Source: Escherichia coli
GTDB taxonomy: Bacteria > Pseudomonadota > Gammaproteobacteria > Enterobacterales > Enterobacteriaceae
NCBI GenBank assembly: GCA_025336685.1
Contig: GCA_025336685.1_4717.1
Length of the DNA stretch: 64,000 bases
Direction: 5' to 3' (one strand)
Shown here: piece by piece, positions 8,441 through 58,762 of the stretch
Layout: every line of letters begins with the position of its first letter
Numbering within the stretch: position 1 is the stretch's first letter
Made by a program: the position numbers and the translations under genes
The notes under the pieces: generated by a model
Told to the model about the DNA's origin: nothing
What the model saw: the letters and a program-made list of their open reading frames with translations, nothing else
Databases searched by the model: none

Positions 8441-8469
8441 ACGGACGTAAAAAAATAACACATAGTTAA

Positions 8470-8505
8470 CCTTCTCCCCAACCCGATGAGGGAAGGGGAG
8501 AAGGG
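8470..8505. terminator. GC-rich hairpin between convergent genes (CCTTCTCCCC...GGGGAGAAGG), member of the junction hairpin family
   Basis: Inverted repeat read directly; lies between stop of 5534-8440 (+) and stop of 8517-8798 (-); followed by CTATG. Confidence 0.5.
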
Positions 8506-8516
8506 CTATGCGCTAT

Positions 8517-8798
8517 TTAATTATTTCGAGAGGTTAACCACGATTCAATTGCGGTGAGGTTGCATTTCAGTTCACGCCAACTAGGGTGTGGTGGGATCAC
8601 AGCACCTTTGTCAATTACGGTTAGCTGAACCTGGTATTTCTGTTGCATACGTGCTACCGTATCGCTTACCGAGAGGAAAAGCTGGTAACGTTCGTACGCT
8701 GTCAGTTCGCGGTCCTGATAAACCGCGTAGGTGGCTAACGTAACTTCGCGTAAGTCCTTTGCGTCCACAGAGACGGTGATGAGTTTATATTGACTCAT
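8517..8798 (-). CDS. small hypothetical protein (93 aa)
   Basis: ATG at 8798 with AAGGAAA SD. Confidence 0.6.
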   Translation of the reverse strand: MSQYKLITVSVDAKDLREVTLATYAVYQDRELTAYERYQLFLSVSDTVARMQQKYQVQLTVIDKGAVIPPHPSWRELKCNLTAIESWLTSRNN

Positions 8799-8817
8799 AC
8801 GGTTTCCTTATCGACTA

Positions 8818-8840
8818 GGGTATTGCAAACTACAATACCC
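8818..8840 (-). promoter_or_regulatory. hairpin GGGTATTG-loop-CAATACCC immediately upstream of the SD of 8517-8798
   Basis: 8-bp inverted repeat between stop of 8861-11419 and start of 8517-8798; no U-tract. Confidence 0.3.
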
Positions 8841-8860
8841 GTCATCGGATGATAACTTAA

Positions 8861-11419
8861 TTACTGCTCTTCACGTTCCAACAGATACTCGGAAGCGGTA
8901 ATACCGTTTACCGTACGTACCGCTTTCAGACGAGTATCGTCACTCAGAATCACGGTAACAGACTGCAGACCTTTTACTTTGGTCTCGAAGGTCTTGAATA
9001 CCTGATCCAGCATACGAGCAATGCTTGGGTTGGTTGCAGCCGATGCGTGAGTGTAACCGTTCTGGTTCAGCTTCAGAATCTTGGCGTTGGTTGGTACACG
9101 AAGAACAACATGCGGACGCATTGCGAACACACTGTGGTTAAACCAGTAAGCATCGTTACTATCTTCGTCAGTGACGATGTCTGGATTAACACGCATGTCT
9201 TCGGTAGCCGCACCCGCCAAACGACGTTCGATTTCGTCAGCATCCAGAGAGCCGTCCTTCTCCAGTTCTGCACGATACTCACTCATGGCAACCAGATGAC
9301 GTTCACGATTCGCTGCAGATTTTTCGTGAGCGGCTTTCAGGTAGTCATGCATGTTGTACAGTTCTGCCATGGAAAGACGAATGTTCCACTGACCTTCGCC
9401 GTCACGATTGCAGTAGAGACACTTCAGCATGTTGACCCAGGTGTAGTAGCAATTGGAGAACTCATCTTCAATGAACTTCTGATCCATTTTAAGATCGTGA
9501 ATCAGCCAACCGGACAGTTCTCCGATATCATCAACGAAGCTAGAAATGGTGGTTTCAGAGAAGTTCTTCGGTACGATACGTTTGATCAGCTTGTTAACGT
9601 CTTTGGTCATGCTATCATTCAGGAAATGCCAGATACGCAGAGGAATGACATCACGATACTGTTGCATGATCTGACGATAAGCTTTGATATCGTCGCTACG
9701 ACCTTTATCAATAGACAACGCGTCCAGGAATTCATGGATAGCATCCAGCTCTTTGTCGGTATAGGTTCCCAGATAGGAATTGACCGTGGCAAGGAATGCT
9801 AATGCGTCGTTTTGGTTGACGTCGGTGTTGGTCTGCTGAATGATCGCTACTGCAGCTTTGGTTTCAGCATCCTCAACGCTTGACGCTGCGATTGCGTCGG
9901 TAACAGTAAACAGTTTCATTTCGCGCTGTTCGCCGACAACGATCGGTTCGCGTTGAACCGGTTTGTTAAGACTAACGCGAACAACTTCTGCTTGCGCGAT
10001 ACGATCCAGTTTTACCATTTCCTGCTCCGCCATACGACGAGCGGTCGGATCTGATTCAAGTTCGATGTATTCCACTTCTTCCTCCGTGAGGGATGTAATG
10101 TCAACAATGGTTTCATGAAGAATTCCGTTTTCGTCGATACGTGCTCGACGAGCGAAGTGTCTGAAGTCATACAACGTTGGCCAGCGACAATTAGGCGCAT
10201 AGTCTTTGGCCTTCAGACGCATCTGCATAAATTCTTCATGTTGAACAACACGACCGTAACGCTTAGCATCTTCGGTCGCATCAATTGGATTAACGGTCTT
10301 TGTTACCGTAGCAGAACGAGCCGTACGAATGGGTTCCGGTTTAGTCTGCACTGGTTCAGGTTGAACGGATTTCTGTTGTCCAGCCTTAACATGCCATTCG
10401 GGTTCTTCGTACCGTTCAGCAAATTGCTCGGCTGCTGCAAAGATATCATTGATACCACCAATATCTCCTTCTGGATTCGTCGAATATATCCGTGGTTGCG
10501 GTGCCTCGTAACGCGGCGCTGAGGTAGCAGATGCGTCGTTAACGACAGGATCGTCATCGCCAACATCATACAAACGGTTGAACGCACAATCCTTCGAATC
10601 GATGTACGATGGAGTTTGTGGTTGGATAACCGTCGGTCGAGGCTGTGCGCCGTATCCCGGCATTGTTGGAGCCATACCACGCATAACTGCTGGGTTAGGT
10701 TGGTATTGTGGTTGTGGGTAGGTTCCGCCATACGTGGGATATGCAGGCTGTTGCGGTTGACCGTACCCACCACCAACCATCGCATTTGCTTGCGGTCCAC
10801 GGTAAGTCATCCCCAGTTGCATCACCTGTTGCTTCAGACCGCGGGACTTCTGCGCTATTTGTGCTAGACTCCCACTTTTATTTAGCTGCGTGTACTTATT
10901 CGCGGCTTCCGGGTTAATGCGCGATAATTCAATCGCACGATAATACTCCGGGTATTGATTGGCTTCAAAGAGCCACGTTACAAGGTGATACAGCGCAACT
11001 GTGCTCACAGCAGCAGAGACGATCTGGTCGTTGGACGCATTCTGCGGCATCGGGTTGATGTAAGAGAATACGTTCCAGCAACAGTCTTCAACAAGCGATT
11101 CCATCATCATGTCGTTATTGGTGTAACGTGAGACGAACTCGGTTTGTATTTTATCCTGTTGGGCGAAGTCTTTCAGGACATTGAAGACAGCTTGACGGAT
11201 TTTGACGATCGTCGCTTCTTGGGTGATGAAGTTATAGTTCTGCTGATATGATGGTTGCTGGTACTGTGGTGGTTGATAGGTGTTATTCGGGTATGCGCTG
11301 TACTGCGGTTGCTGGTACTGTTGTTGGCGAACCTGTTCAGCCGCATAATTAATCGTACTCGCATAAGGGTTTTCGTTGTAGCCCATTTGCTGATACATGT
11401 TGTTACTGCCATTATACAT
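8861..11419 (-). CDS. large hypothetical protein with Q/Y/P/G-rich low-complexity regions (852 aa)
   Basis: ATG at 11419; N-terminal 60 aa and an internal segment are QQPQY/GYGQPQ-type low complexity. Confidence 0.85.
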   Translation of the reverse strand: MYNGSNNMYQQMGYNENPYASTINYAAEQVRQQQYQQPQYSAYPNNTYQPPQYQQPSYQQNYNFITQEATIVKIRQAVFNVLKDFAQQDKIQTEFVSRYTNNDMMMESLVEDCCWNVFSYINPMPQNASNDQIVSAAVSTVALYHLVTWLFEANQYPEYYRAIELSRINPEAANKYTQLNKSGSLAQIAQKSRGLKQQVMQLGMTYRGPQANAMVGGGYGQPQQPAYPTYGGTYPQPQYQPNPAVMRGMAPTMPGYGAQPRPTVIQPQTPSYIDSKDCAFNRLYDVGDDDPVVNDASATSAPRYEAPQPRIYSTNPEGDIGGINDIFAAAEQFAERYEEPEWHVKAGQQKSVQPEPVQTKPEPIRTARSATVTKTVNPIDATEDAKRYGRVVQHEEFMQMRLKAKDYAPNCRWPTLYDFRHFARRARIDENGILHETIVDITSLTEEEVEYIELESDPTARRMAEQEMVKLDRIAQAEVVRVSLNKPVQREPIVVGEQREMKLFTVTDAIAASSVEDAETKAAVAIIQQTNTDVNQNDALAFLATVNSYLGTYTDKELDAIHEFLDALSIDKGRSDDIKAYRQIMQQYRDVIPLRIWHFLNDSMTKDVNKLIKRIVPKNFSETTISSFVDDIGELSGWLIHDLKMDQKFIEDEFSNCYYTWVNMLKCLYCNRDGEGQWNIRLSMAELYNMHDYLKAAHEKSAANRERHLVAMSEYRAELEKDGSLDADEIERRLAGAATEDMRVNPDIVTDEDSNDAYWFNHSVFAMRPHVVLRVPTNAKILKLNQNGYTHASAATNPSIARMLDQVFKTFETKVKGLQSVTVILSDDTRLKAVRTVNGITASEYLLEREEQ

Positions 11420-14874: not shown

Positions 14875-14894
14875 TCACCTAGGTAATGTAAGCG
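14875..14894 (-). promoter_or_regulatory. conserved motif TCACCTAGGTAATGTAAGCG (minus strand TACATTACCTAGGTGA), putative phage promoter
   Basis: One of 4-5 copies of the GGTAATATAG-type motif; about 150 nt upstream of the 13291-14724 start. Confidence 0.35.
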
Positions 14895-19773: not shown

Positions 19774-20100
19774 TTAACTTATTGTCATAAATTCGCTTGG
19801 TGAGAATTTCCAACCATTCTCATTGAGAAGTGTGTTGAGTTTCGCTGCGACAATAAGCCATGCATGCATAGCCGTTATGTCGTATTGGCGATTCACTCGA
19901 CGTTGGTTTTCGATATTGATTTGCTCCTGTTCAGTGATGTTTGGATAGAGTGAGATAGCGCTGGGCTTACCCAGCGCGCTAGCCATCACCGCAGTACATT
20001 CACTGATAATGTTGTTTAAGTGGTAGTTGTATACCGTTCCGCGCATGACGCGATGACGGCATTCGATAATAGCGTCGTAAATGATTTCTCGAGTAATCAT
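19774..20100 (-). CDS. hypothetical protein (108 aa)
   Basis: ATG at 20100. Confidence 0.6.
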   Translation of the reverse strand: MITREIIYDAIIECRHRVMRGTVYNYHLNNIISECTAVMASALGKPSAISLYPNITEQEQINIENQRRVNRQYDITAMHAWLIVAAKLNTLLNENGWKFSPSEFMTIS

Positions 20101-20106
20101 GATAAC

Positions 20107-20508
20107 TTAAAACATGCGTTCGTTTTTAGCACGGGCAGCCATTACCAGATCGTAGATACCTGCGGTTCGTAAACATTCGTCGTAGTAACGATGTGCGCCT
20201 TCCTCAGCCATCCATGATAACCCACGGCTATCCGCAACGATAACCAATTTGTTATTGTTGAATGCACACACCACACGGTAAGTCGCGTTGTTATTCGGAT
20301 CGCGAGTGATCAGCTCATAGACACCGTTAACAGGTTTACTGAATTCGCCATTTAACGGGACGAGTTCGGTAGTACCTTCAGCAAACGTTACGTTGATCGG
20401 AGACGGATCTTTAGCGATAACAGTATATTCCACATTGTGTTCTTTACTGGTCATAATGCCGAAGTAAGAACTGATAGGGGAACGTGGTACACTAAGAATA
20501 TTAAACAT
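20107..20508 (-). CDS. hypothetical protein (133 aa)
   Basis: ATG at 20508 with AGAGGA SD. Confidence 0.7.
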   Translation of the reverse strand: MFNILSVPRSPISSYFGIMTSKEHNVEYTVIAKDPSPINVTFAEGTTELVPLNGEFSKPVNGVYELITRDPNNNATYRVVCAFNNNKLVIVADSRGLSWMAEEGAHRYYDECLRTAGIYDLVMAARAKNERMF

Positions 20509-20578
20509 GAGAGTTGTCCTCTTAATTGGATTTAGATTGTTGGATATGTAATCGGGAAATGAAAACGCTGTTTCGGTT

Positions 20579-21148
20579 TTAGACGATATGTGACCAGGTG
20601 GTAAGCACGCCGCTTGCGAATTCGAGCTTAAGACGTTTACCGATAAGTTGTTGTTGAATCATCTTTTCAGTGATACGTCGATCATGCTGAACAGCTTTAT
20701 CAAACGCTTCTTTCGCTTCGGCTTGGTAGAAGTTCGTTTCTTCGTTGTCGTCGATATCTTCGAGAGCGTCATCGTCAACATCAGCAAGCTTTACTCGACC
20801 GTTTTCATCAGGTTGTTCTGCAGGTTCGTTGTCATAAGGCGTGTCTTTTGTTGGTGCGACACGATGATGCAACTCGACCTGTGTTAACATGATCTCCATC
20901 TCACCATCGATAGGGATGATTTCATCGGCGCAGCCGTTTTCGGTCAGCTCTCGACTTTCTAGCAATGTCGTGGTAACAGAGAACACCTCTTCAACAGGAA
21001 CCTCATCATCGTCGATAGTGTTAACCGTATTGCTGGTAACTTCGGCAACGACCATCAAATCAAATGCGTGAGGATCGCCTGGCATTTTGATTCCTGGGAG
21101 TTTGTTGAGATACCAAGGATCGAGAATCATGATTTCTGGATTAAACAT
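20579..21148 (-). CDS. hypothetical acidic protein (189 aa)
   Basis: ATG at 21148; D/E-rich. Confidence 0.7.
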   Translation of the reverse strand: MFNPEIMILDPWYLNKLPGIKMPGDPHAFDLMVVAEVTSNTVNTIDDDEVPVEEVFSVTTTLLESRELTENGCADEIIPIDGEMEIMLTQVELHHRVAPTKDTPYDNEPAEQPDENGRVKLADVDDDALEDIDDNEETNFYQAEAKEAFDKAVQHDRRITEKMIQQQLIGKRLKLEFASGVLTTWSHIV

Positions 21149-21215
21149 CGTTTTACCTTTCTATGTTAGGTGGATTGCGGATAGAAGAATCAATGCATAG
21201 ATTGATCGTTCTTTG

Positions 21216-22118
21216 TTAGAAATTATTGCCGAACCGGTTATGGTTGTATGGTTGGTAGTGTCCGTAATTGCCTGGGAAGCCACCATACGTCGTAGGCTCC
21301 GGTTTAGGGACTTCCATAATCGGATTTTTAGAATTGATCGCCATCACGTAAAGGGTTACGGGTGATGCTGCGTGGCCCATTTCGACGACCACACGGCGGA
21401 TATAATCAATGTATGCTGTTATTGCAGGCGTCAGTTTGTCTCCTTCGGTAGTTATAACGGTGCCGTCGGAAAGAATCTCACGAACCGCGCACCATTTACC
21501 AAGATGAACTCCTTGCTGCGGCTTTACTCCAGCAGAGATAGAGAGATAGGTATCGTACGTCGTTTGATGATACGGATGACTATAAATAGATTCCGCTTTG
21601 TTTTCGTCTTTCCCTAAGTACTCGCCTTGCTTAGGAGTATGAGTTGATATCATATCGGTATTTTCCACGAATGTCTTTCCTTCGAGTTGTTTGATTAATC
21701 GTTTAACCGATTCAGTTATGTTGTTGTGTCTAGGGATCAGCTTTAAGTAAACAGTCGGTAACTGGATTGTTGACCCATCACTACTGCGCGGATAAGATAA
21801 TTTGTAAAACTGTTCAAAAATCCGCCGTAACGCTTCGTTGTCTGAAGTTGCCAATTTAACATAGGAGCATCGTCCTTTAGCATTGGGATTGTAGAGAAGG
21901 AGAATAACGTCTTCGTCAGTACGTGTATCCTGAGGATGACAAGCGATGTAGTGAATGGGAATAGCCGTATCTTTTTCGTCTCCCGGTTTGATAGACAATG
22001 AAAAATCATGAGTTTCTTTTAACGTTCGTAACGTGCAGGATGCGTCGTCACTATTAAGTAAGAACACACCGAAACGCACGCTTTCGTATGCTGACGGGTC
22101 GCGTATTAATAAGGTCAT
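21216..22118 (-). CDS. hypothetical protein, tandem paralog family with HP.H.TYD.YL motif (about 300 aa)
   Basis: ORF-track start 22196 is TTG; ATG at 22118 has AGGAG SD at 7 nt; shares HPYHQTTYDTYLSISAGV with 22204-22977. Confidence 0.8.
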   Translation of the reverse strand: MTLLIRDPSAYESVRFGVFLLNSDDASCTLRTLKETHDFSLSIKPGDEKDTAIPIHYIACHPQDTRTDEDVILLLYNPNAKGRCSYVKLATSDNEALRRIFEQFYKLSYPRSSDGSTIQLPTVYLKLIPRHNNITESVKRLIKQLEGKTFVENTDMISTHTPKQGEYLGKDENKAESIYSHPYHQTTYDTYLSISAGVKPQQGVHLGKWCAVREILSDGTVITTEGDKLTPAITAYIDYIRRVVVEMGHAASPVTLYVMAINSKNPIMEVPKPEPTTYGGFPGNYGHYQPYNHNRFGNNF

Positions 22119-22203
22119 GTTCGGCTCCTTGATTACGATAAGGATGATTGCGGTTTTGTGGTGCTGGTAGGGCCCTAAACAAAGGAACCCTACCAATATT
22201 AGG

Positions 22204-22977
22204 TTATTCAGGATCGGCGTAGAAATGGTGAGGATAGCCGGAGTACGATCCTGCGTTACCGGCTATGGATTCTTTCTGGGAATCGACGACGAGCGCATAG
22301 AACTGTCGGGAATTTGTTAGCGTTGAGAAATAAGCGGAAAGGACTTTTTCATTCAACGCATCGCAAGGTAGACAGGTGCGACCGCAAAACGTAACGATAC
22401 GGCCGTCAGGATAGATCTCACGAATCATTCTCCACTCACCGATATCCACTGGTGATGGTGCTGCTACACCACCTGTTATCGTTAAGTAACGATCGTACGT
22501 GGTATGGCATTCAGGATGAATATAGATCGGCTTGTTCGTTTCGACAGGTTCCGAAGTGTCTCGACGACTAAGGAGTTCAACGACTTCAAGATAAATCGTT
22601 GGTAGATCGCGGAGAATACCGGTGTTACGACGTTTCTTTGTGATTCGCGGACGAATCTCGTTAAGAGCGTATTCGAGCTTACGTTCAGCTTCGTACGCAT
22701 CGAGTTTTATTAGGTGGCCCGGTTCATCGGAATGATCCTGAGTTATGTAAACGAAATACGTGTTGTCTTTTGCAGCGCGAAAGATTCGAGCGACCTTAAA
22801 TGTTTCTACAGTGCGATAACCAAGGCGCGATTGATTTTCCACAGGAGAAAATATCCAATGTCGTCCTTCGTCCGCCCCAACAATTTCGTTGAAACTATCC
22901 GTTTGTTCTGGGACCTGGTAGTCAGCCATTAATGTATCAAGAGCGTCATCGGCCAGTTTGGTGTAAATATCTGTCAT
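22204..22977 (-). CDS. hypothetical protein, tandem paralog of 21216-22118 (257 aa)
   Basis: ATG at 22977 with GAGGA SD; HPECHTTYDRYLTITGGV motif. Confidence 0.8.
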   Translation of the reverse strand: MTDIYTKLADDALDTLMADYQVPEQTDSFNEIVGADEGRHWIFSPVENQSRLGYRTVETFKVARIFRAAKDNTYFVYITQDHSDEPGHLIKLDAYEAERKLEYALNEIRPRITKKRRNTGILRDLPTIYLEVVELLSRRDTSEPVETNKPIYIHPECHTTYDRYLTITGGVAAPSPVDIGEWRMIREIYPDGRIVTFCGRTCLPCDALNEKVLSAYFSTLTNSRQFYALVVDSQKESIAGNAGSYSGYPHHFYADPE

Positions 22978-23032
22978 GTTTGTATCCTCGGTTGTTAAGA
23001 GAAATTTACAATGATAACAGTAACCGTTGCTA

Positions 23033-23054
23033 TCACCTAGGTAATATAGTCGCG
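23033..23054 (-). promoter_or_regulatory. conserved motif TCACCTAGGTAATATAGTCGCG (minus strand CTATATTACCTAGGTGA), putative phage early-type promoter
   Basis: Exact TATATTAC on the minus strand about 60 nt upstream of the 22204-22977 start; motif recurs at 14875, 58090, 58255. Confidence 0.4.
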
Positions 23055-23091
23055 AAATAAACTGGAGTAATACGCTTAAGACAGTATAGAA

Positions 23092-23123
23092 CCCTCTCCC
23101 TTCCCTTACGGGTTGGGAGAGGG
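23092..23123 (-). terminator. junction hairpin CCCTCTCCC-TT-CCC-TTAC-GGG-TTG-GGAGAGGG
   Basis: Perfect inverted repeat immediately after the stop of 23128-24495; inverse orientation of the 37018 copy. Confidence 0.5.
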
Positions 23124-23127
23124 AATA

Positions 23128-24495
23128 TTAAACGGTTGGGCGAACGGTATTGTCTTTTTCTGGTGCGATCCATAACGTGACCGTACCATGACATGTCCAT
23201 TGTGGTTCACGTACAGAAGAACCTGCCATCGTCACAGCGCAATCGGTACGCATAATGACCCCGTATGCTTCGCAGAGATTGTTATCCTGCATCCACACAA
23301 CTTTAGCAGGCATGCCGGGATACAACAAGTCCATGTTTGCGTATTCCCACACCAACTGCATCGTTCTACCACGTAATCCGGCAGTATTGCTTAATTCACG
23401 CCATCGGTTATCGGTTACGCGTCCCATCCCTTTCGCCACCTTCACGTTATCGCTACGCTCTTCAGTTACGTACTCGCTAACGTTTACAGTACGGCTGATT
23501 ATTGTATCGCCCCCTTTTGATAATGTCATCCCCTGACTCATCTGACTTGCCGAAACAAAACGCCCACCCGCATTACCTAACAACGAAGCCGCGTTATTGA
23601 CGTCGCTTACCGACGCCCCTCTCGTACATGCAATTTCCACGTATTTGTCACGATTGATCCAGGTCTTGTCCATGCCTGGAAACATATCGGCAGGATAGTT
23701 GTAAAAGATCGCCGTGCGTCGACCGTCAGAGAAACGGGTTTCGTCGTAGAGAGGATAAATATACAGATACGGGGATTGATAATAACAACCGACATCTGCT
23801 GAATAAATACCGACCTGGTTCTGGATTTTATCTACAAGATCCATTGCGTTGGTACCGTGCGGAAGAATAAGCAACTTGAATGGGTTGTCGTTATTCGGTG
23901 CAACAATATCCACACCCTGCATTTTGAATCCGGTGTCAGCTTCAACCGCAGAAAGTATCTTGCTGAATTCAAGGCGCAACACATCCAGCACTTTCGATCC
24001 GGTATAGTTCTCACCGGTTTCCGATTGCATGAAGCTTTCAAGAACAGGATCGAACAGTTGAAATTGAAGGTCGACCATTTGTTCGTAGTCTTTCTTCGAA
24101 GAATCGGTTGCGGTACGTTCGTCGGTAGCAGACATACGACTGTCTACGGTTGTTAAACAGACCGCCCGGTAGACATAAGCCTGTGCGGCATCGTCTACGG
24201 TTTGGCGTTGTCCGCGCATCAGGCTGTACGCCTGCACGATGATGCGCATTTTAAGTTGTTGTTGGTACGGTAGAATGTATTTTCCGTAACTGCCTGGTGG
24301 GAACTTTACAGAGATATAAAGTTCATCCCCTGCGTTACGTTCATAGTCTCGATACGTGTGGACTTGAGTCACTAAAGGAACAGACACCGTCATTGACGGC
24401 GTGATTAGTTCCGCGGTGACTTTATACGCAACAGCAACAGCTTCCTGCGCAAACGTACCGATATACCGTCCTAACGGCGTCTGTTTGTAATCCAT
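23128..24495 (-). CDS. hypothetical protein (455 aa)
   Basis: ATG at 24495; 2-nt gap to upstream gene. Confidence 0.85.
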   Translation of the reverse strand: MDYKQTPLGRYIGTFAQEAVAVAYKVTAELITPSMTVSVPLVTQVHTYRDYERNAGDELYISVKFPPGSYGKYILPYQQQLKMRIIVQAYSLMRGQRQTVDDAAQAYVYRAVCLTTVDSRMSATDERTATDSSKKDYEQMVDLQFQLFDPVLESFMQSETGENYTGSKVLDVLRLEFSKILSAVEADTGFKMQGVDIVAPNNDNPFKLLILPHGTNAMDLVDKIQNQVGIYSADVGCYYQSPYLYIYPLYDETRFSDGRRTAIFYNYPADMFPGMDKTWINRDKYVEIACTRGASVSDVNNAASLLGNAGGRFVSASQMSQGMTLSKGGDTIISRTVNVSEYVTEERSDNVKVAKGMGRVTDNRWRELSNTAGLRGRTMQLVWEYANMDLLYPGMPAKVVWMQDNNLCEAYGVIMRTDCAVTMAGSSVREPQWTCHGTVTLWIAPEKDNTVRPTV

Positions 24496-24497
24496 GT

Positions 24498-25103
24498 TTA
24501 ACGACCCCGTTGCTGTTGTTGAATGATGAATTCTTCGATCTTCGTGCCACGGAATTCGCTGTGACGAACTGCTTGCAGCTGTTCTTCAACGGTTGGACCA
24601 GCGTGGAGACCACCACGACGTGCGCGATTGATGCCAATACGACGACGTTGACCGATTTCACGCAAACGTGAAGATAATCCGCTCATTTCGGTTGGGTCTT
24701 TAATACGACCGCGTGCAACGTTCCACAGACCACCCATGAACTCTTCGAGAATACGGCTGGCTTCGAGAGACGGTACGCGTGCGTTAGGGTCGTTTTCGAG
24801 ATTGTATTTAACGTATTCCGTGTGTTCCAGAAGTAACATGAACATCTTCATGGCGTTCACGTCGGGATTTGCAATACGCATAGGGACACCACGAGAATGT
24901 TTTTCAGCAGCCTGCGGTACCGTGAGTTGTGCGGGCACCTCTTCGTTCATGGTCATATCGTCGATTTCTGCAACCCCTGAAGAGTAGACACCGCTGACCT
25001 CATTGGTGTAGTTATCCACCATGAATTTACGGGGAATCCAGAATTCGAATTTACGTTCAAATAGACGTTTGGTTGGAGTATCTTTAACGTGTTGTAGACT
25101 CAT
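24498..25103 (-). CDS. hypothetical protein (201 aa)
   Basis: ATG at 25103 in ATGA overlap with upstream stop. Confidence 0.8.
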   Translation of the reverse strand: MSLQHVKDTPTKRLFERKFEFWIPRKFMVDNYTNEVSGVYSSGVAEIDDMTMNEEVPAQLTVPQAAEKHSRGVPMRIANPDVNAMKMFMLLLEHTEYVKYNLENDPNARVPSLEASRILEEFMGGLWNVARGRIKDPTEMSGLSSRLREIGQRRRIGINRARRGGLHAGPTVEEQLQAVRHSEFRGTKIEEFIIQQQQRGR

Positions 25104-26416: not shown

Positions 26417-27968
26417 AGCGTTTCACTCCTACGATGGTACCGACAAGAATTCTCGGTACGAATAAACTACGATGTTTGAACCATGAAGCGGTTGTTGGGA
26501 TACGTTTGATGGCTTCGATAAGCCCGATTAGCGTATAACATCCCCGGCTGTTCTTCTTAGGCCAGTACTTTTTATCTAAACCTAATACTGCAAACAGTTC
26601 ATCCACCAGATTGGGATAACAACACAACGCTTCAAGCGTCTCAACCTGTAACTGACTTAAATCTAACAGTATCGCCAGACGAACGTGGTAATCACTCCGT
26701 AAGTCTAACGGATCTTTCGCTTCAAGATCACCAACATCGGTTAATGTCCATGCGTCTCTTGCGTAGCGGTATTTACCCTTCCAAACCTCAAGGAAAAAAG
26801 GAGATTGGTAATGACATTTTGACCATTCTGGGTACTCGCGGAACCACCGAACAAGATCGGGATGGAATTCACCTTCTTCAGCTAACGCGTCCAACGTCAC
26901 CAACAGGTTAGGTTGTTCAGGATCGATAGCGAGCAGCGCGGTGAAAAGCGTGCTTGATGGAAGCTCGGTCTCCACGCTCGATGGAGGCAGCCATTCATCC
27001 AAATCGGGATACCGATACGCTTGAATCGATGCACCCTGTTCCGGCAAGAACGAATCACGAAGAATGTCCTGATACTGCACCACCATACCACCACGACGTG
27101 CACGGGATTTATCGCGCACCGAGAGGCTCGGTTTGTAAAGGTACTCTTCGGGGAGTATCTGCTGGTGTACTTGAACCGGATACCGCGCTACGATGTGTGT
27201 TGGTGTGTCGTACGTGTAACGGTAAGAGAATGTAGCGTTGTACGAAGAACTGTTCTCATTCTTCTCTGGCTTCGGAGCGTCAGTGAAATCAAATTGACCA
27301 GAGATCTCTTCTTGCATTTCCCTGATAACCAATTTAACGCTCTTACCGTCACCTGCGACTGTCGTCATGGTGGTTGCACGGTTGTCGAACCCGTCTCTAA
27401 GGTATTCGCTGAACTTATCCTTGTAACCCGCTATTGCTTCTCGGTGTGTGTGAATAACTTTTAACAACATGAGAAACTGTGTTGGGATCGCATAGCTGTA
27501 TTCGGCGCTAAGAAAGGCGGCAACATGCTGACTTGTGAGCAACCGTTTCATGTCGTACCACCAACGTTCGGCGGTGACCTGATCCTCGAACCGTTTGGTG
27601 ATCTGCATGGTCGCAACCATCGTACTGTAGACAGGTACTAACGATACGCCAAGGTTACGGTCTTCAAATACTGGAAGACTGTTTCGTTTGTAAACGGTAT
27701 CGTACATGGACGCCTGTTCTTCAGGAACAACGTTAAGCTCAATTTGGATAAACCCGTCAGCAGGCCCCTTTACATCCTGATCAACAACTTGCGGTGGTTG
27801 CTCGTTCGCAGCACTCATTTTAGCGTGAAGAGCTTCCCCTCGAAAAAGAATGTTCTCCCGATTATAATCCCACCCGCAAAGCTCGCTGATCTGCCGTAAC
27901 ACCGCGATTGCAACTGGACGTGTTACCGTCGCGTATACGTCATTGATTTTTCGATCAAGTTTAGGCAT
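26403..27968 (-). CDS. hypothetical protein (about 521 aa)
   Basis: ATG at 27995 has SD too close; ATG at 27968 has GAGGA at 8 nt and reduces overlap with upstream gene. Confidence 0.8.
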   Translation of the reverse strand: MPKLDRKINDVYATVTRPVAIAVLRQISELCGWDYNRENILFRGEALHAKMSAANEQPPQVVDQDVKGPADGFIQIELNVVPEEQASMYDTVYKRNSLPVFEDRNLGVSLVPVYSTMVATMQITKRFEDQVTAERWWYDMKRLLTSQHVAAFLSAEYSYAIPTQFLMLLKVIHTHREAIAGYKDKFSEYLRDGFDNRATTMTTVAGDGKSVKLVIREMQEEISGQFDFTDAPKPEKNENSSSYNATFSYRYTYDTPTHIVARYPVQVHQQILPEEYLYKPSLSVRDKSRARRGGMVVQYQDILRDSFLPEQGASIQAYRYPDLDEWLPPSSVETELPSSTLFTALLAIDPEQPNLLVTLDALAEEGEFHPDLVRWFREYPEWSKCHYQSPFFLEVWKGKYRYARDAWTLTDVGDLEAKDPLDLRSDYHVRLAILLDLSQLQVETLEALCCYPNLVDELFAVLGLDKKYWPKKNSRGCYTLIGLIEAIKRIPTTASWFKHRSLFVPRILVGTIVGVKRYGAR

Positions 27969-28344
27969 CGGTGTCGTCCTCGCTAATTTCACCATATCCT
28001 TGTTGTCGATATCCGGTATAATGAATCAGACTGCTCTGTAGAAGCTCTTTAACGAGCCCTAGACGCGTTTTATCTGCTTCATTGGACGTTTCCATTAATG
28101 TTTCTATTTCGTTGTTTAAAACAGCGTATAGCGCTTCTAACGGCAATCCTTGGATGATTGGTTTGCTGGTGCCTTCTGGCAATGCCGCAACAGGAATCTG
28201 CACGACGGTTTCACGCGCGGTATGCGGGTTAATACGACAAATGTACATACCTGGTACTGAATGTCGCGGACATACCGCTACCAAGCATGTCTGTTGTTGC
28301 GCACCGTTAAGTGCGAGGGGTAGAAATTTTGCTTCACGTGTCAT
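27961..28344 (-). CDS. hypothetical protein (127 aa)
   Basis: ATG at 28344 with AGGAA SD. Confidence 0.7.
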   Translation of the reverse strand: MTREAKFLPLALNGAQQQTCLVAVCPRHSVPGMYICRINPHTARETVVQIPVAALPEGTSKPIIQGLPLEALYAVLNNEIETLMETSNEADKTRLGLVKELLQSSLIHYTGYRQQGYGEISEDDTDA

Positions 28345-31813: not shown

Positions 31814-32920
31814 TTAAAAGTAATATTTCAGCGCCTCGCGAGAGACATCAAGCATAGCCGCCGTTGAATTCGTAAAGAACTCGGCATAGCCCACAAGCGG
31901 CACCTTGATCCACGCGGTATACGCTGTAAGGTATCGAGAAAGGGCTACCATAGCATCATCAGAAGCAGTAGTAACTGACAACTGACCTTGTTGACGATAA
32001 ACGTCGTTAAGTTTCGCTTGTAGATTCCCTGCAATTTCGAGTAACTCGTTGGCGTACTTTTTACGATGGTAACTAACCAGCAAATCAACGCCCGTATTCA
32101 CAGACTCGAGCAACACACCAACTTGTTCTAATGTTGGCATTGTAACCACCATATCCCGTTCAATGGACGGCACATCCTGGACTTCAAACCGTGCGGATTG
32201 AATAGCGAGGGATTGTTGAATTGAACCAGAACCTGAGGTGGTAACCTGATCGAGTCGTAGCGTACGGTTGCCCAGTAACGTTACGTTGACAAGTCTCGAT
32301 TCGTTCAGCGTACTGTAGACTTTATGCAATAACGTATACGCATCACGATTAATCACATCGATTAATGCGGTATCCGTCTGTTTTAAGATAATGTCGAGTG
32401 CTCTATCTAACGTATTAGCGAACTGCTTGAAATCATCACGGAATGACGAAGACAAGAGATATTCGGCGATTGCCAAATTCTGTTTGTATAGCGTATTCCC
32501 GGTTGTGAAATCGAACCCAAAACTGTTCCCATACCGTAGGTGCGGAGCCAACGTCGACGTAGCTTCGAAGCTTTGCGCGATAGGTTTACGACCAACGGCT
32601 TTTGTGTAGTGACGGCGGATGTTACTGAGTTCGAGTTGTAGTGCGCGACTACGATCGATAAACCGTGCGATAAACGCAGTAATGTTCCGCAACGTTGTCC
32701 AGATTGCATCGATGATAGCTTTGATGATTTTCATCGCAAGCTGATTGTACGATTCCATCGTGAGGAGATCAGCACTTTCTGTGGTATAACCGGTCGTCGG
32801 AATACCGCCCGCTTGCTGATAAATAAGCTGATGAATTTGTCGTTGCGTTGCTGTCTCTGGCACAGGTAATGTCTTTAACAAGCTTAACGCTTGAATCTGT
32901 CCGTCATAGGTCTGCGGCAT
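31814..32920 (-). CDS. hypothetical protein with LTMESY motif (about 368 aa)
   Basis: ORF-track start 32971 overlaps upstream gene by 68 nt; ATG at 32920 has GAGGAA SD at 8 nt. Confidence 0.8.
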   Translation of the reverse strand: MPQTYDGQIQALSLLKTLPVPETATQRQIHQLIYQQAGGIPTTGYTTESADLLTMESYNQLAMKIIKAIIDAIWTTLRNITAFIARFIDRSRALQLELSNIRRHYTKAVGRKPIAQSFEATSTLAPHLRYGNSFGFDFTTGNTLYKQNLAIAEYLLSSSFRDDFKQFANTLDRALDIILKQTDTALIDVINRDAYTLLHKVYSTLNESRLVNVTLLGNRTLRLDQVTTSGSGSIQQSLAIQSARFEVQDVPSIERDMVVTMPTLEQVGVLLESVNTGVDLLVSYHRKKYANELLEIAGNLQAKLNDVYRQQGQLSVTTASDDAMVALSRYLTAYTAWIKVPLVGYAEFFTNSTAAMLDVSREALKYYF

Positions 32921-34205
32921 TGCTGGTTTCCTCAAGTTCGAGATGCGCATCAAGATAATCATTAAGACCATCGATGACGTCGCAGACAGTTAACAGGAAT
33001 CGGGCAAAAGCGACCGCCTGGAAGCCGACGACGTTACGCGCGATACCTACACGTTGAACGATAGCGGATGATGCGGTATCGTTGTTATCCATCTGTTGTA
33101 GTAAACGCTCGTAAGGTTGAATCCATTCGTCCTGGTCGGCAAGGCTTGCTTCAAGACAACGTTTAAATTCCAACTGTCGTAGCGTAGACCATAATGTACT
33201 TAATGCGTTGATGATCGCGTTGGTTCCGTCGATAACATCGTTTAACGGTAAGAAACGGAATCCGTCTTTTGCTGATTGGAAAGGTACAGCTTCCCACACA
33301 ACGCTGAACTGCGTTCCTGATGTGTCTTCGATGTTGTGTAATTTAAGGTAGGAAGCACCAACAGGAACGTCAACGACCAGATCGTCTGTTCCGGTAGGTG
33401 TTAACGGCTTCTCGCATAACGCATCGTTGATGACCTCGAGAATATTCTCCCAACAGGCTTCGTTTTCTGCAGCGATACCTTCTTTGTTATCCACTGATGG
33501 TGCTTTTAGTAGCTGCATTAATAACGGATCGAGTTGACGATGCCATGTTGCGAGTATCCCTGTGTTCGTTACGATGTTTTCTGCGGTTTGTTGTAAATCA
33601 GCAATACTGCTTACCGCACCGCCTTTCGGATGAAGATATCGCCAATTGTAAGGAAAGTTCTCCCAGAATGCGTTATCTTCATTAACATCGTATTCAGAAA
33701 TAGTTTTCAACGCAGCCGCTTTCTTTAATAACGGCTTCACCTGACGAACGAATCGACGATAACAGCGATTGCAGATATCGATCGCGTAGCGGTATAACTC
33801 GTTCATGTAAAGCCATAATGCACGGGTTGCTTCTTTTGCGGTCTTGTCAAAACTTTCCATGTTCAAGCTCATCCCGCTGGAAGTTTCCTCTTCCATACCT
33901 TCGATGATGTGGTTTGGATCCATCCCCATCCCGGCTGCTGCGGTCGATGCGATATGTTTGATCGTGCTGATATCGCGTTCTTCAGCCTCAGTCATATCTG
34001 GGATAATATCCAACCTGAGTTTATTTAATGTTTGAAGGTGTTGTTCACCTTCTTTCATCACCATGTTTGTTTCGTCGATTGAGTGAAACTGGTTCTCAAT
34101 ATTACTGGCATCGAGAATATTGCCAGCGATACCGAACGATTCTACAGGTTCATCATCAATCCCTTGAAACAACGATGTCATGGGTTGTTGCAACACGTTT
34201 TCCAT
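32904..34205 (-). CDS. head-internal (inner-body-like) protein paralog (433 aa)
   Basis: ATG with AGGAG SD; acidic N-terminus, conserved ISTIKHIASTAAAGMG and NMESFDK segments shared with the three genes upstream. Confidence 0.85.
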   Translation of the reverse strand: MENVLQQPMTSLFQGIDDEPVESFGIAGNILDASNIENQFHSIDETNMVMKEGEQHLQTLNKLRLDIIPDMTEAEERDISTIKHIASTAAAGMGMDPNHIIEGMEEETSSGMSLNMESFDKTAKEATRALWLYMNELYRYAIDICNRCYRRFVRQVKPLLKKAAALKTISEYDVNEDNAFWENFPYNWRYLHPKGGAVSSIADLQQTAENIVTNTGILATWHRQLDPLLMQLLKAPSVDNKEGIAAENEACWENILEVINDALCEKPLTPTGTDDLVVDVPVGASYLKLHNIEDTSGTQFSVVWEAVPFQSAKDGFRFLPLNDVIDGTNAIINALSTLWSTLRQLEFKRCLEASLADQDEWIQPYERLLQQMDNNDTASSAIVQRVGIARNVVGFQAVAFARFLLTVCDVIDGLNDYLDAHLELEETSNAADL

Positions 34206-34311
34206 TTGGGACTCCTACGTAGGGAAATCTTGGCGGGTGATCATGTCCGCCATTTACCTTCTGAACCGTTGATTCAGAAGTCAAAAGATAACCGGATACC
34301 GGCGTCATAAA

Positions 34312-34343
34312 CCTTCCTCCTTCCCTTACGGGTTGGAGGAAGG
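34312..34343 (-). terminator. junction hairpin CCTTCCTCC-TT-CCC-TTAC-GGG-TTG-GGAGGAAGG
   Basis: Perfect inverted repeat after the stop of 34354-35643; flanked by CATAAA and TTATG. Confidence 0.5.
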
Positions 34344-34353
34344 GATAGGGTGA

Positions 34354-35643
34354 TTATGCTTTTTCGGTCGCTGCGTTGAAGTATTTCGCAGCAGCAAATA
34401 CAGCATCCGCATACTGACGTACAGAGGCACGGAGGATCTTAGTTCCTAATACAGAGCTTAAACGAGCCATTTCTGTTACAGCTGTGATATAAGGACGTAC
34501 GGTTTCACGATCAGCCTCAGGTAACTTGTCGAGCATTTCGCCCCACTTCGTTTTGATCTGCATTCCGTTGAGTTTAGCGTCTCGTCCTACAGAGCGCGCC
34601 AAACTTTCAACTTTATGCAAATACGTCGGTTCCACCATACGGAATGCCTTCAGATATGCAGTCAATGCGCTTTTCAGCTCATTCCCATCGTGGAAAATAT
34701 TCGCATTTTCGATTTTATCTGTTACGGTGTCAACAACTTCAATATGAACATCCTTCACCAAAGCACATGCTTTAACGACATCCTTCTCTTTTTCTAGCGC
34801 ATCCAACCCTTTAACGACATATTGTTTTCCACCACTTTCTGGAAGTCTGAACGCCCTCAGTGCGGCTTTAGTGGCCTGAAGATACTCGTCTAGGACACGA
34901 TCAAGCGTTGTTAAATCAGTTAGGACATTAATGTCGTAGTTGATATCGCCGATCTTAGTAAATAAGAAATCTGATATCGTCGCACTTGCAGCCAGTTGTT
35001 CGATATGTTTGCTAACGGATGCCGCATCAACAGATTTTGCGTTCGGGAACATATTAACCATATTCCCGGTAGGCTTCTCTAGTTGTTTGATCTGACGTTC
35101 CCCTTTATTGACTTCGGATGCAATTTTGGTGATCTCAGCATAAGCCAGAACGAGATTCTTGAACAACATCTGGAACAGTTTGAACAGTTGCTCAGCAATA
35201 TTTGCAATGATTACCCAAACTGCGTATAACGCTTGTGCTGCGCGTTCTTTAAAGCCTTCCAGTACGATAGCCTGTCCTTCCACTAATTTATCATTAGCCT
35301 GGAACATGTCTTCATCAGACATCCCCAGGTTTGCTGCTGATGTCGAAGCGATCTGACGGATAAGTGCGACGTCGCTCACACGTGCTTCCGAGATCGTTGG
35401 TGCGATCATGTACGCTGTATCTTCCAGCGTTGCTGAGGTACGCACTGCAATTTCAGCCAGTTCGCTGGATTCATCGATTGTCTCGTCGGTATGTCGAATC
35501 ACCAACTCAACTTCACCCTCTTCAATTTCTGCGTTAGGATCGTGTTGCTCCGTCGGAATCGTCGCGAGAAGATCTTCGGCGCTGAGCAATGCGAGTTCGA
35601 ATGCGTTTTTATTGACGTTGTCAAAAAGAGAAATACGTGCCAT
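34354..35643 (-). CDS. head-internal (inner-body-like) protein paralog (429 aa)
   Basis: ATG with AGGAA SD; VSDVALIRQIASTSAANLG and IVLEGFK segments. Confidence 0.85.
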   Translation of the reverse strand: MARISLFDNVNKNAFELALLSAEDLLATIPTEQHDPNAEIEEGEVELVIRHTDETIDESSELAEIAVRTSATLEDTAYMIAPTISEARVSDVALIRQIASTSAANLGMSDEDMFQANDKLVEGQAIVLEGFKERAAQALYAVWVIIANIAEQLFKLFQMLFKNLVLAYAEITKIASEVNKGERQIKQLEKPTGNMVNMFPNAKSVDAASVSKHIEQLAASATISDFLFTKIGDINYDINVLTDLTTLDRVLDEYLQATKAALRAFRLPESGGKQYVVKGLDALEKEKDVVKACALVKDVHIEVVDTVTDKIENANIFHDGNELKSALTAYLKAFRMVEPTYLHKVESLARSVGRDAKLNGMQIKTKWGEMLDKLPEADRETVRPYITAVTEMARLSSVLGTKILRASVRQYADAVFAAAKYFNAATEKA

Positions 35644-35652
35644 GTTAGTTCC

Positions 35653-36969
35653 TTAACCTTTGGTATAGGCTTTAACGAGAGTGTTGATAAATGAAGTCAG
35701 TGCGCGAAGATACTGGTACGCGAACTGGTTTTCAATACGGTTCTCTTTACCGCAAAGCAGAATCGCGCGCTTAACGAGCTTAGGATAGATCTCGATGTAC
35801 GGTTGGTAGCTTGCATCAAAATTCTGCTCGTTGAAGCGTTTCATGGTGATTTCCTGGATACGCTCCATGGTGCGAATTTTATTGCGAGAGAATATCTCAG
35901 AGAAAGCACGTCCGCGTTTTGTTACCATCAACAGATCTTTCGCGAACGTCAGTTGTCGAACGCTACGCAAATCGTCAGGTGTTGGTAGGACGTACGTTTC
36001 TGGATCGTTATCCCATTCAACATCTTCAACGACAATATCCAAGTCGAGGTAACGTTTAACAGCATCGATGATATTGTCTTTTGACGCATCGAATTCTTTC
36101 AAGAAGACTGCGCCGTTGATGTAGCGGATACGTTTTCCGGAAACCGTTGGGGTGATAACGTCAGCACCTTCCACAGAACCACGATTTTCCAGCGTCGATT
36201 TGACAGCGTTCAAGAAAGTCAGATAATCAACGGGAAGTTTTTCAACCTTATCTAAATGGAAGTCGATGATGTTTAATCCTAACCCATCAATAACTGAATA
36301 ACCGTCCGATTTAAGGAACATCTGATTGAAGGTATCGATGTTGCTTTTCAGCGTGTCTACACCACCAACGTTGTTACGGTTAGGGAAAAGTGTTCGCCAC
36401 TCTGCTTTAAACGCGACCTCTTTATTTTCCGTGTATTTGCCTTTGGGCATTTGTTCGAGGGCTGCAATAGCTTTCTGAAAATTGCGTGTCTCGTCATAAA
36501 CAAGATGGGTAAGCTTCTCGAAGGCTGCTGCCAGAGTCAGGGCAATATCAACGATGATATCCCAGATCTTTTTCATGGCTTTTACAACGGTGTCTTTAAA
36601 CCCTTCAACAACCAAAGCTTCTCCAATCTCAACACGGTCGGTTGGAGTCAGCAATGCTTCGGAGGGCAAGCCCAAAGCAATCGATGCGGATTCTTGAATG
36701 TTACGAACCAACGCAACATCACTGTAGTTAGCCGATTCGATAGTCGGGGCAACATCAAAACTGATTTCCCGCAGTGCTTCAACAGCAGGGAAAGCACGAT
36801 CAAGTGCATCTTCATGTTCGTCGATTGTCGCCAAACGTAACTCAACACCATCAGCATCGATGACTTCAGCGGTAGGCTCCACAGCAAGCGCTTCAGCAAC
36901 AATAGGATCTTTTTCAAACGCTTCGAGGCTGATATCGCCTTGGGTCGCAAATAGCGGTATGTGTACCAT
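35653..36969 (-). CDS. head-internal (inner-body-like) protein paralog (about 438 aa)
   Basis: ORF-track start 36993 is TTG; ATG at 36969 has GGAGA SD at 7 nt; YSDVALVRNIQESASIALG and LVVEGFK segments. Confidence 0.85.
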   Translation of the reverse strand: MVHIPLFATQGDISLEAFEKDPIVAEALAVEPTAEVIDADGVELRLATIDEHEDALDRAFPAVEALREISFDVAPTIESANYSDVALVRNIQESASIALGLPSEALLTPTDRVEIGEALVVEGFKDTVVKAMKKIWDIIVDIALTLAAAFEKLTHLVYDETRNFQKAIAALEQMPKGKYTENKEVAFKAEWRTLFPNRNNVGGVDTLKSNIDTFNQMFLKSDGYSVIDGLGLNIIDFHLDKVEKLPVDYLTFLNAVKSTLENRGSVEGADVITPTVSGKRIRYINGAVFLKEFDASKDNIIDAVKRYLDLDIVVEDVEWDNDPETYVLPTPDDLRSVRQLTFAKDLLMVTKRGRAFSEIFSRNKIRTMERIQEITMKRFNEQNFDASYQPYIEIYPKLVKRAILLCGKENRIENQFAYQYLRALTSFINTLVKAYTKG

Positions 36970-37017: not shown

Positions 37018-37049
37018 CCCTCTCCCAACCCGTAAGGGAAGGGAGAGGG
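37018..37049 (-). terminator. junction hairpin CCCTCTCCC-AA-CCC-GTAA-GGG-AA-GGGAGAGGG
   Basis: Perfect inverted repeat after the stop of the codon-optimised 441-aa gene; flanked by CATAGAA and AATATG. Confidence 0.55.
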
Positions 37050-58201: not shown

Positions 58202-58274
58202 TCACCTAGGTTGCGTTTTGTTAATAACAAAACGCATCGCCTTAGTGACCTATGTCACTAAGGTAATATAGCCG
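58202..58274 (-). promoter_or_regulatory. composite regulatory region: TCACCTAGGT half-motif, perfect 25-bp palindrome, 10-bp hairpin, then full GTCACTAAGGTAATATAGCCG motif
   Basis: Palindrome TGCGTTTTGTTAA-T-AACAAAACGCA at 58212-58236 and inverted repeat CCTTAGTGAC/GTCACTAAGG at 58240-58263, both read directly; TATATTAC on the minus strand. Confidence 0.4.
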
Positions 58275-58360: not shown

Positions 58361-58762
58361 TTAAATGTCGTGGACGGCATTGCCGTTTAACCAGCAATAC
58401 AGCTTAACGCGACACGGATACCGCTTCGTTGCAGCAGCCATTTCACCGCGTAAACGCTGGTAGATTTCATCCTGGTGTTCACGTTCGATGGGGTAATCAG
58501 CCCAGCATTCGATCATGACGTCACCATTAGTCAGAATCGTCGTACGCATCCTGTCCTGGACTCGACGATCTTTCCCAGCATTAGGGAAATACATCCCTTC
58601 AGTACGAATAAGGTCACCACAGGGCATGACTAACCATTCGTTCGTTTTGCCGGTATTCTTATAATCCGTTACAGCTTGCATTGCGGTGTCAACGCTAAAA
58701 GAAACATAATTCCAAACGGGGGTCCAACGATAGATTGCGGGTTGTTCAAGTGTTTCGTTCAT
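58361..58762 (-). CDS. small hypothetical protein (133 aa)
   Basis: ATG at 58762. Confidence 0.75.
   Translation of the reverse strand: MNETLEQPAIYRWTPVWNYVSFSVDTAMQAVTDYKNTGKTNEWLVMPCGDLIRTEGMYFPNAGKDRRVQDRMRTTILTNGDVMIECWADYPIEREHQDEIYQRLRGEMAAATKRYPCRVKLYCWLNGNAVHDI

Follow-up and report, generated by a model that had tools for sequence, protein, structure and literature searches.

Large lytic phages have hyperplastic accessory regions, for example the variable clusters of internal-protein and early genes in T4-like phages. In nucleus-forming phages, the DNA is protected from most nucleases, and the remaining limits on infection are expected in the cytoplasm very early, or at the level of RNA and protein. 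The early promoter core of the jumbo phage phiKZ probably reads TATATTAC. An AT-rich motif of ~10 nt upstream of early operons, detectable bioinformatically, marks the early promoters of the virion RNA polymerase (vRNAP) in jumbo phages that encode RNA polymerases (PMC7598289). Goslarvirus genomes are concealed in Enterobacteriaceae assemblies; the genus has grown from 1 to 237 genomes, which now come from E. coli, Salmonella and Shigella (PMC12768965).

Here, we analyzed two adjacent genes, A and B, in a stretch of 64,000 nucleotides from an E. coli assembly (hereafter, the window). Positions 20000-24500 are 94% identical at the nucleotide level to Escherichia phage vB_EcoM_Goslar, matched over only 63% of the region, and the window belongs to a Goslar-like nucleus-forming jumbo phage (Goslarvirus, Chimalliviridae). 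The origin of the A and B entries in a contig of ~241 kb of an E. coli assembly agrees with Goslarviruses being hidden in Enterobacteriaceae assemblies (PMC12768965). The features of the locus are as follows.

19774..21148, minus strand: three small co-oriented genes downstream (189, 133 and 108 aa), homologs of Goslar gp46, gp45 and gp44
21216..22118, minus strand: gene A, 300 aa (MTLLIRDPS...GNNF), a paralog of B with a longer helical linker (predicted), no Cys cluster and a Tyr/Asn/Gly/Pro-rich tail
21525..21578, minus strand: family motif of A, HPYHQTTYDTYLSISAGV, residues 181-198
22114..22134, no strand assigned: copy of a 21-nt direct repeat over the ribosome-binding site (RBS) and ATG of A; its partner is 859 nt away
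22164..22196, minus strand: hairpin in the B-A spacer, -22.3 kcal/mol, z -2.0, without a U-tract
22204..22977, minus strand: gene B, 257 aa (MTDIYTKL...ADPE), promoter-proximal in the array of the window, with a variable N-terminal and a conserved C-terminal domain
22363..22386, minus strand: Cys cluster CGRTCLPC of B, residues 198-205, within the string FCGRTCLPC of the preliminary description
22465..22518, minus strand: family motif of B, HPECHTTYDRYLTITGGV, residues 154-171, including H154 and C157
22973..22993, no strand assigned: copy of the direct repeat (21 nt) spanning the RBS and ATG of B; its partner is at 22114..22134
23039..23059, minus strand: early-type promoter motif TATTTCGCGACTATATTACCT, with the core TATATTAC at 23041-23048
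23092..23123, no strand assigned: strong hairpin CCCTCTCCC-N14-GGGAGAGGG, -27.7 kcal/mol, z -3.6, closing the upstream late structural operon

A and B belong to a small two-domain family that is apparently restricted to Goslar-like jumbo phages and heads an accessory operon as a copy-number-variable array. We assign a probability of about 45% to the reading that they would be dispensable early cytoplasmic host-interaction factors, acting in takeover or counter-defence, with an exchangeable N-terminal specificity module and a conserved C-terminal core.

Both open reading frames are present on the minus strand, and their coordinates agree exactly with those of the preliminary description. The product of B is identical to NCBI MCT7382375.1, labelled “hypothetical protein” [E. 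coli], and that of A to MCT7382374.1, labelled “hypothetical protein”; the start of A is the ATG common to all homologs, rather than an upstream TTG. A and B are real genes, because both have a low dN/dS (see below) and are preceded by Shine-Dalgarno sequences. In the window, neither the Rfam nor the tRNA scan found anything, and scans for sigma-70 promoters and intrinsic terminators gave counts at or under background.

The preliminary description had presented A and B as tandem paralogs of an unrecognised family, and both statements were borne out. BLASTP of A against B aligned ~125 residues with E=5e-12, the homology is collinear in the multiple alignment from the initiator Met-Thr through the C-terminal region, and three more subfamilies link A to B end to end; as judged by these alignments, the two are shown to be true paralogs, and their similarity is not due to chance. 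The motifs quoted at that time are all found in A and B, and the segment that follows the family motif reads GKWCAVREI in A and GEWRMIREI in B. Over 29 sequences, with ~20-30% identity between subtypes, 20 columns are invariant: M1, T2, the P of LPT, Y-x-H-P, D, Y-L, G, V, G-x-W, R-E, D-G, T, G and P.

Profile searches of Pfam, PHROGs, NCBIfam, PADLOC and PDB sequences gave no significant match for the family; the best sub-threshold matches, none of which reach any cut-off, were phrog_26610 (E=0.006, unknown function), P8_CR (E=0.049) and YEATS. The last of these, the only match of the profile against PDB sequences, was rejected at E=0.35, and the PADLOC match RTasSLATT (E=0.019, P0026 alone) was dismissed as noise. 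In a profile scan of 1.84e9 cluster representatives, only four clusters fell below 1e-10, namely B, A and two further subtypes, and a word-indexed search of 5.8e9 clusters returned close relatives only, all unnamed or “hypothetical” and most of them on contigs of 235-250 kb. The remaining matches of the exhaustive scan, P0027-P0033, are NHL-type repeat proteins hitting one short beta-hairpin motif and were set aside. The sole tblastn match of A in INPHARED, MT835987 (E=1e-3), is a high-GC bacterial contig (human-gut) and was treated as a false positive; its matching gene presumably encodes a SpoIVA-like protein, as far as can be read by eye. A second family copy is present neither in the window nor in the Goslar genome, and every member traced to DNA lies at one locus, between the spike-cap gene and the gp46 homolog of Goslar-like contigs. 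Because there are only four clusters and every traced member sits at the same locus, the family appears to be confined to one locus in one genus. Homology to a routine structural protein, which the preliminary description had named as the contrary result, was looked for and not found. The family is an orphan without any detectable relative or fold, tandem lineage-specific paralogs themselves being common in large phages. The window alone carries three sets of such paralogs.

Both proteins are hydrophilic (GRAVY -0.47 for A and -0.48 for B), without a membrane segment; B is mildly acidic (pI 5.25) and A near neutral (pI 6.60). AlphaFold2 yielded a mean pLDDT of 43.5 for B with 19 sequences and 47.9 for A with 29 sequences, and at this low confidence both models are unusable. 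Foldseek, suggested earlier as a check, was run with the low-confidence A model against BFVD and PDB and gave no fold match, only noise (best E 0.04 and 0.43, respectively; TM <0.2). Secondary structure agrees between the two low-confidence models, in which we distinguish the following three predicted parts: (i) an N-terminal alpha/beta domain (approximately residues 1-135 of B) that would end in an LPT(I/V)YL strand, the same strand being the final element of a standalone 134-aa N-terminal-domain protein; (ii) a variable linker, predicted to be helical and ~45 residues longer in A; (iii) a C-terminal domain with five predicted strands, one helix and one strand, followed by a low-complexity tail with many Tyr, Asn, Gly, Pro and His residues. 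A 2H phosphoesterase (Acb1-like anti-CBASS) was considered for the H-x-T-like strings. Such enzymes need two conserved H-h-(T/S)-h motifs, whereas in this family the H of the HP motif is the only invariant one, the histidine of HTT/HQTT varies within B (H, R or C), and there is no second motif; this candidate was rejected.

B has exactly four cysteines, C157 (in HPEC), C198, C202 and C205, with the spacing C198-x3-C202-x2-C205. Because these only four cysteines are all invariant, among 13 aligned B sequences, they represent a candidate zinc site, and the simplest reading suggested by the alignment is a putative structural Zn(Cys)4 site gained by the B lineage. In the other subtypes, the positions of C198, C202 and C205 are occupied by E/D/N, L and A/T, respectively, and the Cys cluster is absent. 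The Cys-containing C-terminal region, previously ascribed to the pair, is present in B; it is a feature of the B subtype, not of the family, and is missing from A, C, D and E.

The preliminary description also placed a promoter-like site upstream of the pair. The core TATATTAC at 23041-23048 on the minus strand lies 63 nt upstream of the ATG of B. By itself, the 8-mer shows no enrichment in the window (3 found versus 1.9 expected), but the 21-mer TATTTC(G/A)CG(A/G)CTATATTACCT occurs twice versus 0 expected (0 in shuffles). In Goslar, 8 of the 10 occurrences of TATATTAC have the extended consensus TTTCACGGCTATATTACYTaGGTGA. A weight matrix (PWM) was built from these extended Goslar sites, and five shuffled genomes served as the control. 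The scan found 12 Goslar sites and 3 sites in the window, compared to zero across the five shuffled genomes; five of the sites, carrying TACATTAC, lay outside the training set, and all sites are intergenic, 30-160 nt upstream of a co-oriented gene. For example, the Goslar site at 172971-172978 (minus strand) is 73 nt upstream of gp189, that is, ChmA, the chimallin nuclear shell protein (PMC9891218). All 7 of 7 related loci have a conserved copy of the motif ahead of their first family gene. The promoter-like site was therefore confirmed as a recurrent intergenic motif, found also before chmA, and in the window it would serve the five-gene unit B-A-gp46-gp45-gp44, beyond the pair itself. A literature search on the string TATATTAC returned nothing relevant.

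An AT-rich motif that recurs before presumed early operons and precedes the shell gene chmA has the features of the early promoter class, and we infer that it is a vRNAP promoter of this class. The earlier expectation of early expression is well founded but indirect, as it would follow from the class of the motif. It should be noted that “early” discriminates only weakly in this phage, because 175 of 249 Goslar genes are already detectable at 5 min post infection (PMC10541120).

The promoter position, which suggests early expression, is also what would be expected of early nucleic-acid-binding regulators of the phage's own programme. Such a role would draw on the putative zinc site and the basic RPRITKKRR patch of B, and the invariant Cys4 set and the conserved basic stretch at residues 109-116 of B are in its favor; against it, the Cys cluster and the basic patch are both absent from A, C, D and E, profile searches detected no DNA-binding domain, and dispensable, highly variable genes would be unusual for a core regulator. 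We consider this role rather unlikely.

The genomic surroundings of the array are structural. The flanking genes encode the spike cap, the stopper and the tail terminator, the 455-aa flanking gene being Goslar gp48, the baseplate spike cap (bioRxiv 10.64898/2026.04.21.720040). On the other side of the array lies the gp46 homolog (189 or 168 aa, depending on the contig; the 189-aa form is very acidic, with pI 4.2), and the major capsid protein gene is ~4 kb away on the side opposite the spike cap. The homologs of gp46, gp45 and gp44 obtained no family assignment and probably complete the A/B operon; a literature search found no paper mentioning Goslar gp44-47. The hairpin at 23092..23123 insulates the array from the upstream late operon. 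The element TATGC(C/T)GT follows this hairpin in most relatives, as it does 8 of the 18 annotated terminators of Goslar, whereas the window reads TATAC (within TTCTATAC) where most relatives read TATGC. The TATGC of the relatives resembles the late TATG start element of phiKZ (PMC7598289). The hairpin in the B-A spacer is possibly an attenuator or a processing site.

These surroundings raise the question of whether A and B are packaged in the virion and ejected with the DNA, like T4 internal proteins or inner-body paralogs of the phiKZ type, with the N-terminus MT(D/T/K)(I/V)Y.(K/R)L serving as a packaging signal. The locus is indeed among structural genes, and the N-terminal octapeptide is kept while the rest of the N-terminal domain diverges, but the A subtype lacks the MTDIY N-terminus. 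Inner-body proteins typically occur as tandem paralogs, and one such set is found in the window beside the inner-body gene gp58 (PMC10541120); this inner-body-like cluster (32904-36969, beside the gp58 homolog) is, however, separate and dissimilar to A and B, which resemble neither the gp55-58 homologs nor any PHROG. The TATGC after the upstream hairpin in most relatives, which is like the late TATG of phiKZ (PMC7598289), makes late expression possible besides early expression; in the window, TATG is mutated to TATA, and the array has its own early-class promoter, with the hairpin separating the late operon. Finally, Goslar, which lacks both genes, still makes fully infective virions. Packaging is thus quite unlikely, and host-interaction factors made early remain our preferred reading.

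Among relatives, five subtypes were distinguished: B (254-271 aa), A (291-300 aa), C (277 aa), D (295-300 aa) and E (286 aa). Their arrays are composed as follows.

Window: B + A
L012, L013 and L002: B + D
L003, L004 and L015: B + E + A
L014 and L017: B + E + N-terminally truncated A
L005 and L006: standalone N-terminal-domain gene (134 aa) + B + C
Goslar: none (remnant only)

The arrays contain 0 to 3 full copies, B being first in most relatives and followed by one or two of the four other subtypes, and B subtypes and partner subtypes combine freely. An extra 236-aa gene in L005 was considered as an R-S-E ADP-ribosyltransferase, an assignment that neither Pfam nor PDB supports. Goslar gp47 is a relic in which the 5' region of B is joined at the ATG to codons 1-15 of A, and these in-frame to the last 10 codons of A; the 25-codon remnant reads MTLLIRDPSEYENTR followed by YNHNQFGNNF. 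The junction of the B deletion in Goslar coincides with the 21-nt RBS/ATG direct repeat. The repeated truncation and deletion, including that in Goslar, a viable laboratory phage that keeps the remnant only, show that the A and B genes are dispensable. Goslar, the sole studied member of the genus, lacks both of them.

Selection was assessed by pairwise Nei-Gojobori dN/dS, calculated for the halves of A and B. The dN/dS was 0.09-0.27 in the C-terminal and 0.18-0.72 in the N-terminal halves; omega was <1 throughout, with no sign of positive selection in the pairwise estimates. Compared to an omega of 0.01-0.05 for the spike-cap gene, that of A and B was 0.1-0.6, and dN was as high as 0.9 in the N-terminal and 0.03-0.28 in the C-terminal domain, versus 0.002-0.023 for the spike-cap gene. 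Both genes are thus under purifying selection, yet their protein evolution is ~10-100x faster than that of the adjacent spike-cap gene. The dS of B ranged from 0.28 to saturation, usually above that of the flanks (0.13-0.27 in most pairs), which points to replacement of alleles or domains from an older pool and not to mutation in place. The N-terminal domain of B is of two types, 33% identical, whereas the C-terminal domains are 63-98% identical; for example, the B proteins of the window and of L002 are 33% identical in the N-terminal and 86% identical in the C-terminal domain. The N-terminal domain of B swaps independently of the C-terminal domain, and subtypes and domains are shuffled between phages. 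The same B allele (at least 90% identity) was recovered from phage contigs of both E. coli and several Salmonella serovars, so that no simple host-specific pattern backs a role in specificity.

Early, dispensable and variable genes fit a role in phage-phage competition, that is, exclusion of superinfecting or rival phages rather than action against the host, as well as they fit counter-defence, and exclusion could be relevant in bacterial isolates, in which Goslarviruses persist (PMC12768965). Exclusion is nevertheless highly unlikely in our assessment, given that A and B are hydrophilic proteins with no membrane segment and have no PADLOC match. Decaying, functionless or purely selfish reading frames in a recombination hotspot would account for the repeated truncation and deletion, but this explanation is extremely improbable and largely refuted by the selection data, considering the dN/dS of 0.1-0.3 in the C-terminal domains, the 20 columns invariant across such divergent subtypes and the reading frames that are intact in most loci.

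Under the preferred reading of A and B as host-interaction factors, the virion RNA polymerase would transcribe the array from the early motif, and synthesis of both proteins would take place in the host cytoplasm, minutes after injection and earlier than or together with formation of the nucleus. There they would act on the host, in takeover or in counter-defence. The fast-evolving, swappable N-terminal domain may provide target specificity, and the conserved, predicted beta-rich C-terminal domain (Y-x-H-P, D, Y-L, G-x-W, R-E, D-G) a common activity or scaffold, stabilised in B by the putative Cys4 zinc site. No similarity of A or B to known anti-defence or takeover proteins was found in the databases searched (Pfam, PHROGs, NCBIfam, PADLOC and PDB sequences). 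A more far-reaching proposal, which we regard as speculative and doubtful, is that the family represents a novel type of early cytoplasmic effector in nucleus-forming jumbo phages. Such effectors would have a fold not seen before, in which an exchangeable N-terminal domain for specificity is joined to a conserved C-terminal domain and a tail rich in Tyr, Asn and Gly. Goslarviruses would use them against polymorphic host defences or factors that operate ahead of, or outside, the phage nucleus, the cassettes helping to set which Enterobacteriaceae strains can be exploited.

The locus differs between otherwise near-identical Goslarviruses, is dispensable and has an early-type promoter, and hence is a testable candidate for host range or counter-defence. 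Goslar is a natural deletion mutant, which makes complementation straightforward. In addition, the extended promoter motif can be used to map putative early operons across Goslar-like phages.

Like the early promoters of phiKZ (PMC7598289), the motif has a conserved AT-rich core that precedes several operons, including that of the shell gene, with all sites co-oriented. It differs in being longer, TTTCACGGCTA(T/C)ATTACYTaGGTGA. A resemblance to NHL, or six-bladed beta-propeller, proteins lies in the motif (I/V)RE(I/V)xPDGx(I/V)xT of A and B, which is similar to a blade signature and led to the weak multi-stretch NHL matches of the exhaustive search. These matches (P0027-P0033) are limited to ~17-35 residues and repeatedly cover only 17-63 query positions, in the repeats of the matched proteins themselves. 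Homology to the NHL propeller was rejected as a coincidence of motif, since the motif occurs once per protein and there are no tandem blades of ~40 residues. The inner-body families of phiKZ and Goslar (the gp55-58 region in the latter) are likewise tandem paralogs within the structural part of the genome, but they have no sequence similarity to A and B, which are absent from Goslar, and the inner-body set is preceded by hairpin and TATG elements, compared to the early motif before A and B. With the hyperplastic regions of T4-like phages, the locus shares lineage-specific genes of unknown fold in a fixed slot between conserved genes, copy number and alleles that vary among close relatives, recombination at short conserved junctions and dispensability in the laboratory. 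Unlike those regions, to which it has no sequence relationship, its cassettes are all paralogs of one two-domain family and stand behind a promoter of the apparent jumbo-phage virion-RNAP type in a nucleus-forming phage.

The motif TTTCACGGCTA(T/C)ATTACYTaGGTGA, which lies upstream of the first gene of the A/B family, represents a set of putative early promoters that is spread across the genome; all of these sites lie on the minus strand. The related phage Goslar carries 12 such sites, located upstream of gp4, gp21, gp40, the gp47 remnant of the A/B locus, gp75, gp105, gp159, gp175, gp182, gp189 (the shell protein ChmA), gp221 and gp236. Two further sites were found in the window:
14883-14890 (-), putative early promoter
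58263-58270 (-), putative early promoter

The annotated gene Goslar_00047 (62 aa; Goslar record 49584-49772, corresponding to 7204-7392 of Goslar locus L001) includes the early-promoter motif as well as the 5' UTR, and the true remnant ORF is likely to comprise its final 25 codons. The same gene call of 62 aa was found again in several Goslar-like contigs.

In some relatives, an extra gene of 236-243 aa separates the spike-cap gene from the early promoter (3738-4448 in L005, 1547-2278 in L017, and also in L006). Strings noticed by eye (YRG...SFTDT...QREY) were considered as those of an R-S-E ADP-ribosyltransferase, an assignment that Pfam and PDB did not support: the best match across both was TusA, at E=0.003, below the cut-off. 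The next gene of the operon in the window is the following:
20579-21148 (-), gp46 homolog, 189 aa
This protein is strongly acidic (pI 4.2; 42 Asp+Glu vs 15 Lys+Arg), no family match was found for it, and some relatives have a 168-aa variant in its place. In L006, the divDNAB-domain gene (8240-9142) is called as 300 aa, compared to 536 aa in other loci; an uncalled gap of ~900 nt follows. The locus may therefore have been disrupted or have received an insertion.

Two other tandem paralog sets are present in the window:
32904-34205, 34354-35643 and 35653-36969, counterparts of Goslar gp55-57
1238-2089 and 2100-2699, second set
The former adjoins the homolog of the inner-body protein gp58 and is probably an inner-body paralog family.

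A terminator hairpin, CCCTCTCCC-N14-GGGAGAGGG, is located upstream of gene B and occurs twice in the window:
23092-23123, terminator hairpin
37018-37049, terminator hairpin
The 14-nt centres of these two copies are oppositely oriented. Upstream of gene B, the orientation of the centre also differs among phages, being the same in the window and L014, and the other way in Goslar, L002, L003, L012 and L013. The flipped centre looks like an inversion across the palindromic stem.

In Goslar (L007-L011), TATG follows 8 of the 18 annotated terminators within ~20 nt, compared to a background rate of 6%, and it usually takes the form of a T-run with TATGC(C/T)GT. The terminator/TATG element is also found in the window, at four positions:
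upstream of 27961-28344
upstream of 32904-34205
upstream of 35653-36969
upstream of 58361-58762
The element may be either an unusual terminator tail or a composite of a terminator with a late start element, similar to the TATG of phiKZ.
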